Below are positions 1 through 1,680 of a DNA stretch of 11,387 nucleotides, piece after piece (positions within the stretch are counted from its first letter, which is position 1; the number at the start of each line of letters is the position of its first letter). Both the position numbers and the translations under genes were made by a program. A model generated the notes under the pieces. The model saw nothing but the letters and a program-made list of their open reading frames with translations. It ran no database searches and had not been told where the DNA came from. This DNA is from a virus (lineage: Duplodnaviria > Heunggongvirae > Uroviricota > Caudoviricetes), in the IMG/VR virus record IMGVR_UViG_2563366866_000006, one strand, 5' to 3'.

Positions 1-288
1 TTTAAGGGATTAATTCCTTCAAAAGTAAAATCTCGCCCGCAATGTTGTGACGATGACGCGATGATCATTTGCGGGTGCATGGCCCGTCTGAAAAATAACA
101 ACAGCGATTTGCATGATTTGTTAGTGGACTATTATGTCGGCGGCATGACTTTTATGGCGCTTGCGCGTAAGCATGGTAGATCTGATTGTTGGATTGGCAG
201 GATGCTCCAAAAAGCTGAGGGCGTAGTGGAGGGCATGCTGATGGTGTTGGATCTCAGATTGGAGATGGATGCTGATTGTTTGAGATAA
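1..288 (+). CDS. Late antiterminator Q (phage 21/82/DLP12 QuuD-like), C-terminal part; the 5' end lies outside the window
   Basis: Frame 1 is open from base 1 ([31 protein letters not shown]...) to the TAA at 286-288, so the 75-aa ORF in the track is only the tail of a longer protein. The Cys-rich [12 protein letters not shown] segment and the following sequence match my recollection of DLP12-type Q proteins. Its position directly upstream of the late promoter and lysis genes fits Q. Confidence 0.75.
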
Positions 289-300
289 TTAAAGGAAAAG

Positions 301-350
301 TTGCTGTCTGGTTATCATTAGACTAATGTTTCAAATGTTAGAATCGCAAC
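301..350 (+). promoter_or_regulatory. Candidate late promoter pR' (extended -10 element TGtTAGAAT at 336-344) about 50 bp downstream of the Q stop
   Basis: Sequence atgTTAGAATcg has a TGn-TAGAAT extended -10 at 336-344. No good -35 is present, which is typical of Q-dependent late promoters. Its distance from the Q stop resembles lambda. It could instead belong to the IS200 left end. Confidence 0.3.
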
Positions 351-386
351 GTAGTTATGATCATATAACAGCTTGTTCCCTGATTT

Positions 387-415
387 AGCCAGCCTCCCCA
401 AAGGCTGGTTTTTTT
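387..415 (+). terminator. IS200 left-end hairpin with rho-independent-terminator shape (stem 389-394/403-408, loop tccccaaa, T-run 409-415)
   Basis: ccagcc...ggctgg is a perfect inverted repeat followed by seven T residues, read directly from the sequence. In IS200 this structure is known to block read-in transcription. Confidence 0.7.
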
Positions 416-425
416 GTGCACAGAA

Positions 426-448
426 AACCCCCAGCTAGGCTGGGGGTT
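426..448 (+). promoter_or_regulatory. IS200 tnpA 5' UTR stem-loop (aacccccagc-tag-gctgggggtt), probable translational control structure
   Basis: A perfect 10-bp stem with a 3-nt loop, read directly. Its C-rich arm is complementary to the AAGGGGG Shine-Dalgarno sequence just upstream of the tnpA start at 559. Confidence 0.55.
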
Positions 449-558
449 CCGGAAAGCTTTCAGCTTTGAGCCAGTTATTAAAACCCCTTTTGATTTGTTA
501 AAACACCTTGCGGTCTGGCAACTGCAAGTGTCAAACAAGAAATCAAAAGGGGGTCCCA

Positions 559-1017
559 ATGGGGAACGAAAAGAGCTTAGCGCACACCCGATGGAACTGT
601 AAATATCACATAGTTTTTGCGCCAAAATACCGAAGACAGGTGTTCTACAGAGAGAAGCGTAGAGCAATAGGCAGTATTTTGAGAAAGCTGTGTGAGTGGA
701 AAAGCGTACGGATTCTGGAAGCTGAATGCTGTGCAGATCATATCCATATGCTTGTGGAGATCCCGCCTAAAATGAGCGTATCCGGGTTTATGGGATATCT
801 GAAAGGGAAAAGCAGTCTGATGCTTTACGAGCAGTTTGGTGATTTGAAATTCAAATACAGGAACAGGGAGTTCTGGTGCAGAGGGTACTACGTCGATACA
901 GTGGGTAAGAACACGGCGAAGATACAGGATTACATAAAGCACCAGCTTGAAGAGGATAAAATGGGAGAGCAGTTATCGATTCCCTATCCGGGCAGCCCGT
1001 TTACGGGCCGTAAGTAA
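559..1017 (+). CDS. tnpA: IS200 transposase TnpA (HuH Y1 transposase, about 152 aa)
   Basis: Translation MGNEKSLAHTRWNCKYHIVFAPKYRR...HIHMLVEIPP...YIKHQLEEDK carries the HuH motif (HIH) and the catalytic Tyr region, and matches my memory of Salmonella/E. coli IS200 TnpA almost exactly. The start is placed at the internal ATG at 559, preceded by AAGGGGG, rather than at the ORF-track start at 508. Confidence 0.93.
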   Translation: MGNEKSLAHTRWNCKYHIVFAPKYRRQVFYREKRRAIGSILRKLCEWKSVRILEAECCADHIHMLVEIPPKMSVSGFMGYLKGKSSLMLYEQFGDLKFKYRNREFWCRGYYVDTVGKNTAKIQDYIKHQLEEDKMGEQLSIPYPGSPFTGRK

Positions 1018-1090
1018 CGAAGTTGGATGCAAATGTCAGATCGTGTGCGCCTGTTAGGGCGCGGCTGGTAAGAGAGCCTTATAGGCGCAT

Positions 1091-1127
1091 TTGAAAAACC
1101 TCCGGCTATGCCGGAGGATATTTATTT
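1091..1127. terminator. Bidirectional intrinsic terminator hairpin (cctccggc-tat-gccggagg), mainly serving the minus-strand lipocalin gene
   Basis: Perfect 8-bp GC-rich stem at 1099-1106/1110-1117. On the minus strand it is followed by TTTTTCAA, about 40 nt downstream of the lipocalin stop. On the plus strand it is followed by a weaker ATATTTATTT. Confidence 0.6.
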
Positions 1128-1155
1128 CTAATAAGTATCAATCCGGTTAGGTATT

Positions 1156-1680
1156 TTATTGTTTGACCCATAATAGTTCATTGACATTGAATCCCAATTT
1201 TTGAGCAGTACGCACATAGTCTGCTTTTACATTATCTGGAATAGTTGGAGTCCGTGCCAGAATCCATAGGTATTCTCTGTTCGGACCACTGACAAGAGCA
1301 TACTTATACTCATCATCCAGTTTGATTACATTATAGCCACCATAGAAGGGGCCAAAAAACGAAACCTTCAACGCTGCAGTTGTATTATCTCCTGTAAAGT
1401 ATGCTTTACCTTCGCTCTCGCTCCATTTGTTTTTCGTTGGGTCATATCCACGATTAAGTACACTAATCCCTCCGTCGTTCCGTTTCCCATAAGTGGCGCT
1501 GACCTGTTCCAGACCACGTTCAAATCGGTTCTCAAGCCGAGCTATTTCATACCATTTTCCGAGGTAGCGGTTGGTGTCAAAATTTGTAATCGGCTGCACA
1601 CCTTTAGGTGGTGTCGGGGCCTTACATGCTATCAGAGTGAAAGAGAGTGCAATGCCAGTCAACACAGGCCATAACTTCAT
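1156..1680 (-). CDS. Outer-membrane lipocalin lipoprotein, Blc family
   Basis: 174 aa. Signal peptide with a lipobox (FTLIAC, Cys19). Conserved lipocalin core YLGKWYEIARLENRFERGL...KVSFFGPFYGGYNVI...YLWILARTP closely parallels E. coli Blc. ATG at 1678-1680 with an AGGA about 8 nt upstream. Confidence 0.9.
   Translation of the reverse strand: MKLWPVLTGIALSFTLIACKAPTPPKGVQPITNFDTNRYLGKWYEIARLENRFERGLEQVSATYGKRNDGGISVLNRGYDPTKNKWSESEGKAYFTGDNTTAALKVSFFGPFYGGYNVIKLDDEYKYALVSGPNREYLWILARTPTIPDNVKADYVRTAQKLGFNVNELLWVKQ

Follow-up and report, generated by a model that had tools for sequence, protein, structure and literature searches.

Does an insertion sequence that has come to lie between the antiterminator gene Q and the late genes of a lambda-like prophage uncouple those genes from Q? 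The question is raised by a stretch of viral DNA of 11,387 nucleotides (the window, that is, the whole stretch analysed), in which an IS200 element follows shortly after a Q gene. In the preliminary description of this DNA, IS200 was placed in the region in which Q engages the paused polymerase (the Q-loading site, qut), with possible uncoupling of the lysis and head genes from Q. One part of this picture stands: IS200 does separate the lysis and head genes from the region of Q and the late promoter. Its position within qut does not stand, as the comparisons below indicate.

The window is best explained as the late-control cassette of a lambda-like Escherichia coli prophage (Table 1). A Q-family antiterminator gene, with its stop codon at 286-288, lies directly upstream of the late-control interval, and the genes for lysis and morphogenesis follow downstream in the orientation of Q. 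The full-length Q homologue of Lambda_2E9 was found to match PF06530 over the full profile (E = 2e-51) and the PDB Q21 chains 6p18 and 6jnx (E = 2e-8). An intergenic stretch of 127 bp (289-415) separates the Q stop codon from IS200. In relatives without IS200, the blc-like lipocalin gene is the first gene past tR'; the order past the lipocalin gene is a YbgA-like gene, an AraC-type regulator, an S21-type holin, lysozyme, and Rz. The reading frames of the window past Rz match the lambda terminase and portal in size, and are so annotated in the CB7286 relative. Within the window, the frames of the 3' part of Q, holin, endolysin, Rz, terminase, and portal are all open; the alignment of the window to L001 runs from position 1501 onward. 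Such a cassette would run from a Q21-family antiterminator gene through a short intergenic stretch, which holds the late promoter together with the signals for Q loading and pausing, to tR'.

Table 1. Features of the late-control region, in positions of the window
Feature	Position	Strand	Basis and remarks
Q late antiterminator gene, 3' part	1-288	+	Residues 31-125 of a 125-aa Q21-family protein, PF06530
Candidate pR' core promoter	301-329	+	TTGCTG (301-306), 17-bp spacer, TAATGT (324-329); putative
Extended -10-like element TGTTAGAAT	336-344	+	Phage sequence; also in empty sites
TATGAT, second -10-like hexamer	356-361	+	Candidate pause element if 339-344 is the promoter -10; putative
tR', predicted intrinsic terminator of the short pR' transcript	387-415	+	9-bp stem, 6-nt loop, T7
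IS200 (IS200C type)	416-1126	+	711 bp; junctions against empty sites, plus the tR2 filled/empty pair
IS200 left-end hairpin, bidirectional intrinsic terminator	426-448	+	Fold, IS nt 11-33
Shine-Dalgarno-sequestering stem	484-552	+	Fold, IS nt 69-137; art200 antisense RNA encoded opposite
tnpA, Y1 (HUH) transposase, 152 aa	559-1017	+	PF01797, E = 4e-38; co-oriented with late transcription
IS200 right-end hairpin	1099-1117		Terminator-like on both strands, then ATATTTATT; -15.9 kcal/mol, z = -3.4
Lipocalin (blc-like) cargo gene	1156-1680	-	PF08212, E = 2e-43; annotation of empty-site phages

The position of the junction was obtained from phage genomes with and without the element. Comparison of positions 1-1200 of the window with phage genomes by megablast gave two classes of match: records with an empty site, which match 1-415 and 1128-1200 contiguously, and others, which match only 409-1127, that is, IS200 at other places. 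The empty site in Lambda_2E9 and IdasGreatGrand reads GGCTGG-T7/8-CTAATAAG, and the filled site in the window reads GGCTGG-T7-GTGCACAG...GGAGGATATTTATT-T-CTAATAAG, with ATATTTATT as the right end of IS200. Alignment to the empty sites places the first base of IS200 (GTGCACAG...) at 416, 72 bp past the end of the -10-like element rather than the 20-40 bp originally estimated. The right boundary, which abuts a T, is uncertain by 1 nt (1126 or 1127). There is no target duplication when filled and empty sites are compared at tR' and at tR2, and IS200 sits immediately behind the final T of tR', no phage sequence having been lost. The tR2 pair gives the same element boundaries as the window: the filled site in Lambda_ev058 reads ...GGCCTTTTTATT-GTGCACAG...ATATTTATT-TGGGGGAG, and the empty site in CB7286 reads GGCCTTTTTATTTGGGGGAG. 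The IS200 copy of Lambda_ev058 is identical to that of the window in the alignment (99.9% with flanks).

The anatomy of the element supports this junction, since the published IS200 features fit once nt 1 is set at 416. The left-end terminator of IS200, which protects against incoming transcription, has been assigned to nt 12-34, and the stem sequestering the Shine-Dalgarno sequence to nt 69-138 (PMC4513863); the corresponding folds in the window are listed in Table 1. In addition, a match to Rfam STnc490 (146 bits) covers 426-549. A single Y1 transposase gene, an element of ~700 bp, the left-end hairpin, and the Shine-Dalgarno stem all identify the element as IS200. The tnpA reading frame is intact, and in CB7286, which is identical to the window over 230-600, the matching CDS is annotated as the IS200C transposase WP_000526135.1, a widespread protein. 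Once in place, the element adds at least two hairpin terminators and ~140 nt of structured untranslated RNA, which could somewhat lower late expression.

With the junction at 415/416, the stem with a T7 run at 387-415 falls on the phage side. This structure, which had been recognized earlier and taken to be brought in by IS200, is present (stem 387-395/402-410, T run 409-415) and folds with -14.2 kcal/mol (z = -3.8), a stability reached by 1 of 200 shuffles. The terminator belongs to the phage, however, because every empty site carries it: the hairpin and T-run are found without IS200 in Lambda_2E9, in IdasGreatGrand, in 80 of 80 IMG/VR loci, and in 1079 complete E. coli genomes. The T-run in empty sites is 6-9 long, a natural range that includes the seven of the window. 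The 387-415 hairpin is thus, on the evidence of these alignments, the phage's own tR' and not a part of IS200, whose own terminator is the second strong hairpin, confirmed at 426-448. Assignment of the 387-415 hairpin to a longer variant of IS200 was also considered, and was rejected in view of its retention in the empty sites. That idea arose from megablast matches to other IS200 copies starting at ~383-389; the flanks of those matches are different host terminators (galR and fghA) that are merely alike. In cassettes of this kind, the late promoter is constitutively active and its transcription is terminated at tR' in lysogens, giving a short terminated RNA (PMC7547250). In a lysogen, the present cassette should likewise yield a short RNA terminated at 409-415. 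The sequence change just past the T-tract, from CTAATAAG to GTGCACAG, could slightly shift the efficiency of tR'.

Between the Q stop codon and tR', several candidates for the late promoter and the pause element can be named. The extended -10-like element TGTTAGAAT, described as lying about 50 bp past the Q stop codon, is indeed present at 336-344, 47 nt past it; the alternative that it is internal IS200 sequence does not apply, as it is phage sequence found in empty sites. It is a candidate only by virtue of its position between Q and the terminator, and the motif itself is no rarer than chance: when up to one mismatch is allowed, TGNTATAAT is found 10 times in the window, as against 9.6 occurrences expected from shuffles, and a second extended -10 instance, TGAGATAAT at 281-289, overlaps the Q stop codon. 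The common cassette allele, carried by about a thousand genomes as well as by the isolated phage IdasGreatGrand, has TGTTGGAAT in place of TGTTAGAAT, and the key A is not conserved; the reading of this allele argues against TAGAAT as an indispensable -10. The hexamer at 324 keeps A2 and T6 in all alleles seen (TAATGT, TAACAT, TAATAT, and CAACAT), and that at 356-361 has TATTAT as its common-allele form and TATTAC at two loci.

The -10-like hexamers start at 284, 324, 339, and 356, and none of them stands out statistically. Start-to-start spacings suitable for promoter/pause pairs are those of 324/339 (15 nt) and 339/356 (17 nt), and two layouts fit the known spacing. In one, TTGCTG-17-TAATGT (301-329) is the promoter and TAGAAT (339-344) the sigma-dependent pause element; in the other, TGTTAGAAT is the extended -10 and TATGAT (356-361) the pause element. 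TGTTAGAAT could be the -10 of pR', a sigma-dependent pause element, or neither. When the candidate layout was set against the annotated phage 21 cassette, DNA alignment was not significant (90-104 of 500 shuffles scored as well), and there is no clear 8-bp direct repeat of the phage 21 kind in the window cassette. With the DLP12/ev243-type cassette, whose Q gene is 83% identical, only ATATAACAG and GTTAGAA are held in common, in reversed order. Allele comparison, hexamer listing, and the comparisons with phage 21 and DLP12/ev243 were thus each tried as a means of fixing pR', and none of them placed a promoter, pause, or Q-binding element.

The site at which IS200 landed is of a kind that the family prefers. 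In a scan of one genome per species with the IS200 left-end hairpin as query, 117 distinct flanks were collected from hosts including Yersinia, Serratia, Vibrio, Citrobacter, Phytobacter, and various metagenome-assembled genomes. A strict hairpin with a T-run, defined as a perfect stem of 5 bp or longer with a T-rich tail behind it that ends at the IS boundary, adjoins 97 of these IS200-like left ends (83%), as compared with 77 of 5000 random positions from the same loci (1.5%); among the 20 misses, imperfect hairpins with T-runs predominate. The same enrichment has been reported for the IS200/IS605 family in a 2026 survey (PMC13548323). IS200 is also found directly past a T-run at the galR terminator, the fghA terminator, and lambda tR2, and the junction in the window follows the T7 run of tR'. 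Judged by these flanks, tR' is a typical, ordinary landing site, at which the single-strand Y1 transposase would insert 3' of a short T-rich target. In Lambda_ev058 and PhiR63_2, IS200 is located at tR2, upstream of Q, and is co-oriented with the N-antiterminated early rightward operon.

Over 271-415, the window agrees with 11 deposited phage genomes at 100% identity and with IdasGreatGrand at 92%, all of them without IS200 there. The uninterrupted Q-terminator-blc junction is present in 1079 of the 5426 complete E. coli genomes (REL606 is one), and the site is empty in all 80 of the IMG/VR loci recovered with the Q protein. IS200 at the tR' site was found in only six genome records, and the megablast of window positions 1-1200 gave none at tR' itself among deposited phage genomes. 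The 11 deposited phages bear names in the convention of a study in which the sequenced phages had been plaque-purified and amplified on indicator strains (PMC6969025). A number of short IMG/VR contigs end ~155 nt past Q; the possibility that these are assembly breaks at IS200 was rejected, as they represent empty sites ending blc-proximal.

The nearest relative among complete genomes is E. coli CB7286, with a prophage at icd in the same arrangement; an IS2 in that prophage is missing from the window, which must therefore derive from a different strain. Four other E. coli genomes carry a different IS200 variant, ~4% divergent from the window copy over 416 nt, at exactly the same junction in the other cassette allele, which points to an independent insertion at the same site. 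A single ancient insertion at tR' common to both alleles was weighed but is the less likely case, two independent insertions being favoured by the fact that the copies are different variants, both present at other loci. Precise excision is possible in the IS200 family, and the single ancient insertion is judged only less likely.

Overall, the favoured reading, to which a probability of about 0.8 is attached, is that the cassette is intact, the landing site typical, and the late genes still dependent on Q. Relative to deposited phage genomes, the insertion leaves the stretch between the Q stop codon and the end of tR' (289-415) unchanged. Because Q must load upstream of tR' and the insertion is past tR', qut should be untouched. 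By analogy with known cassettes, the promoter, pausing, and Q-loading signals would all be contained within 289-386, and alignment with uninterrupted relatives accordingly puts pR' and the complete qut elsewhere than the insertion. In a lysogen, tR' and the IS200 left-end terminator together would shield tnpA from the constitutive late promoter. Upon induction, Q would load upstream of tR' as usual, and the Q-modified polymerase, passing tR' and then both IS200 hairpins (426-448 and 1099-1117), would transcribe the cargo genes and reach the lysis and head genes. The insertion would then be close to neutral, with the late genes staying under Q control. Of the two outcomes foreseen in the preliminary description, the favoured one is therefore that in which Q loads and the complex reads through IS200 and the cargo, and the one in which Q loading is disrupted is contradicted.

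Read-through is inferred from Q21 and lambda Q, and the present Q is only a distant relative of Q21 (E = 2e-8). The Q21 nozzle at the RNA exit channel generically prevents the formation of terminator hairpins. Suppression of rho-dependent termination and of insertion polarity has also been reported for lambda Q and 82 Q. Furthermore, because Lambda_ev058 and PhiR63_2 have been deposited with a co-oriented IS200 in the N operon, the terminators of IS200 are tolerated by an antiterminated polymerase, although the antiterminator in those phages is N and not Q.

One alternative accepts the loading of Q and supposes that the left and right hairpins of IS200, together with the structured untranslated stretch, terminate a substantial fraction of the transcripts, cutting late expression, burst size, or lysis timing twofold or more. 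The left-end hairpin has been described as a terminator against incoming transcription (PMC4513863), and both hairpins are stable. The rarity of the filled site (six records versus 1079 genomes with an empty site) is compatible with a cost, as is the lack of isolated phages with IS200 at tR' among deposited phage genomes; rarity is, however, equally explained by a very low rate of IS200 transposition. Against such polarity, Q21-type antitermination blocks hairpin formation generically, and the phages with IS200 in an N-antiterminated operon were deposited as phage genomes. In addition, lambdoid late operons already traverse tRNA genes, cargo, and terminators, with two tRNA genes past the terminator in phage 21. 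A partial polarity of this size is thus considered unlikely.

Somewhat less probable still is that the insertion is irrelevant, the prophage being already defective or never induced, so that no selection acts on it. Relatives do gather other insertion sequences, namely IS2 in CB7286 (absent from the window), IS66 inside IS200 in YZLc1-3, and an IS256-family element in L020. The gene set of the CB7286 prophage is nevertheless lambda-like and apparently complete: it begins with int, goes on with early, replication, lysis, and head genes, and reaches the tail genes, as read as far as the tape-measure gene at the edge of the fetched stretch. Likewise, the lysis, terminase, portal, and Q 3' frames are open in the 11.4 kb of the source visible as the window. 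Finally, that IS200 interrupts the qut/pause region and supplies the terminator, such that Q cannot load and late transcription stops at IS200, was suggested by the place of the element between Q and the late genes and by the close succession of the -10-like element and two hairpins, but is rendered highly improbable by a junction past the phage's own terminator, an interval of 289-415 the same as in deposited phage genomes, a 387-415 hairpin present in more than 1000 empty sites, and a paradigm cassette in which the Q-binding and pause elements are upstream of the terminator.

Under the favoured reading of an intact, Q-dependent cassette, the late switch is not visibly broken by IS200, and the prophage should not be annotated as defective on that ground. 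The configuration is an ordinary one that is already understood, and it probably has little effect on late-gene control. Two practical rules follow for annotation: the first hairpin with a T-run past Q in lambdoid prophages is to be taken as the phage's tR', and the boundaries of IS200 are to be set at GTGCACAG, directly past the host terminator and not upstream. The repeated insertion of IS200 at phage terminators subject to antitermination is a small curiosity that leaves current understanding unchanged. It could be speculated, with little confidence, that behind such terminators tnpA is transcribed from the strongest phage promoters only in lytic growth. If so, the expression of IS200, and possibly its excision or transposition, would be coupled to induction, with the element riding in virions; the idea draws on the fact that phage DNA replicates in lytic growth and single-stranded substrate is abundant.

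The closest parallel to the cassette as a whole is that of phage 21, for which the pR'-6S RNA-tR' unit of lambda is the classic analogue. Both the window and phage 21 have the order Q, short promoter region, intrinsic terminator within ~130 bp of the Q stop codon, and late genes, and the Q of the window belongs to PF06530 and matches the Q21 structures. In the phage 21 genome, pR', the Q-binding element, the pause element, and the terminator all lie within ~90 bp past the Q stop codon. The two differ in that the Q of the window has 125 rather than 162 aa and is a distant match to Q21 (E = 2e-8), in that there is no detectable DNA similarity between the cassettes, in that pR' and the pause element of the window are candidates only, and in that IS200 follows the terminator of the window. 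The predicted short terminated RNA from the constitutive late promoter, running from pR' to tR', resembles StxS and lambda 6S RNA; its likeness is one of principle, with ~65-80 nt predicted for the window against 74 nt for processed StxS. The 6S RNA of lambda is ~194 nt long.

The element itself resembles IS200 of Salmonella and E. coli (IS200C) and IS1541 of Yersinia in its length of 711 bp, its single Y1 gene, its hairpins, its STnc490/art200 region, its lack of a target duplication, and its insertion past a hairpin and T-run. It shows no difference of its own from these elements, and only its location behind a Q-regulated phage terminator is particular. The copies at tR2 in Lambda_ev058 and PhiR63_2 share with it the T-tract of a terminator that is overridden by antitermination and the same orientation relative to phage transcription. 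They lie, however, in an early operon controlled by N, whereas the copy in the window lies in a late operon controlled by Q.

A second IS200 variant, approximately 4% divergent from that in the window, occupies the identical junction at the phage terminator tR′ in prophages carrying the common cassette allele, that is, the far commoner sequence version of the Q-tR′ interval (L006, H34-H36); in E. coli YZLc1-3, this variant is truncated in turn by an IS66-family element. Because a different IS200 variant is found at the identical junction in the common allele, recurrent targeting of the tR′ T-tract by IS200 is suggested. In two deposited lambda-like phage genomes, Lambda_ev058 and PhiR63_2, IS200 starts exactly after the T-tract of tR2, a terminator in the N-antiterminated early rightward operon, and the Q-pR′-tR′ cassette of Lambda_ev058 is that of the window. 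Across genera, a strict hairpin plus T-run was found to abut 97 of 117 IS200-like left ends, versus 1.5% of random positions; these left ends (L091-L210) were taken from genome contigs of Yersinia, Serratia, Vibrio, Citrobacter, and various metagenome bins. One of these loci, L183, contains a tandem pair of IS200-like copies. There, the IS200 right end (hairpin plus ATATTTATT) resembles an IS200 target.

In contrast to the window, one related prophage (L020) shows a genuine split of the promoter-proximal region by an insertion sequence: its Q-tR′ interval holds an IS256-family element directly after TGTTGGAAT, flanked by an 8-bp duplication, GTTGGAAT.

Positions of insertion sequences, the IS200 right-end structure, and shared words
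Feature	Location	Context
IS200 at tR2	L003 1009-1719 (Lambda_ev058)	between ren and ninB; co-oriented with early rightward operon
IS200 at tR2	L009 1509-2220 (PhiR63_2)	between ren and ninB; co-oriented with early rightward operon
Other IS200 variant at tR′ junction	L006 1687-2160 (E. coli YZLc1-3), plus H34-H36	common cassette allele
IS256-family element	L020 1923-3265 (IMG/VR UViG_2541047874_000003)	equivalent to window 337-345; 402-aa PF00872 transposase
Extra IS2	L010 21659-22887 (E. coli CB7286)	between lipocalin gene and ybgA
IS200 right-end hairpin, then TTTTTCAAAT	window 1099-1127	minus strand
ATATAACAG	window 363-371	counterpart in L211
GTTAGAA	window 337-343	counterpart in L211
Counterparts of ATATAACAG and GTTAGAA	L211 1063-1071 and 1084-1090	DLP12/ev243-type cassette

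On the minus strand, the IS200 right-end hairpin with TTTTTCAAAT sits just 3′ of the convergent lipocalin gene, whose transcript could terminate there; at the empty site lacking IS200, no terminator-like structure was evident on the lipocalin-gene strand. Near the left end, the Rfam family STnc490 matched window 426-549 with 146 bits on the strand sense to tnpA. STnc490/art200 has been described as antisense to the tnpA 5′ UTR (PMC4513863); the Rfam model seems to correspond to the strand of the 5′ UTR.

Among complete genomes, only that of CB7286 is identical to window 230-600. The IS2 of CB7286 is absent from the same lipocalin gene-ybgA interval in the window, and the window thus derives from a different strain or from an earlier state of the prophage.

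The DLP12/ev243-type Q gene shows 83% DNA identity to the window Q, with the region after Q otherwise unalignable. ATATAACAG and GTTAGAA are nevertheless common to the window and the Q-downstream region of L211, a cassette of this type, in reversed order in the latter, and could reflect either chance or short regulatory words.
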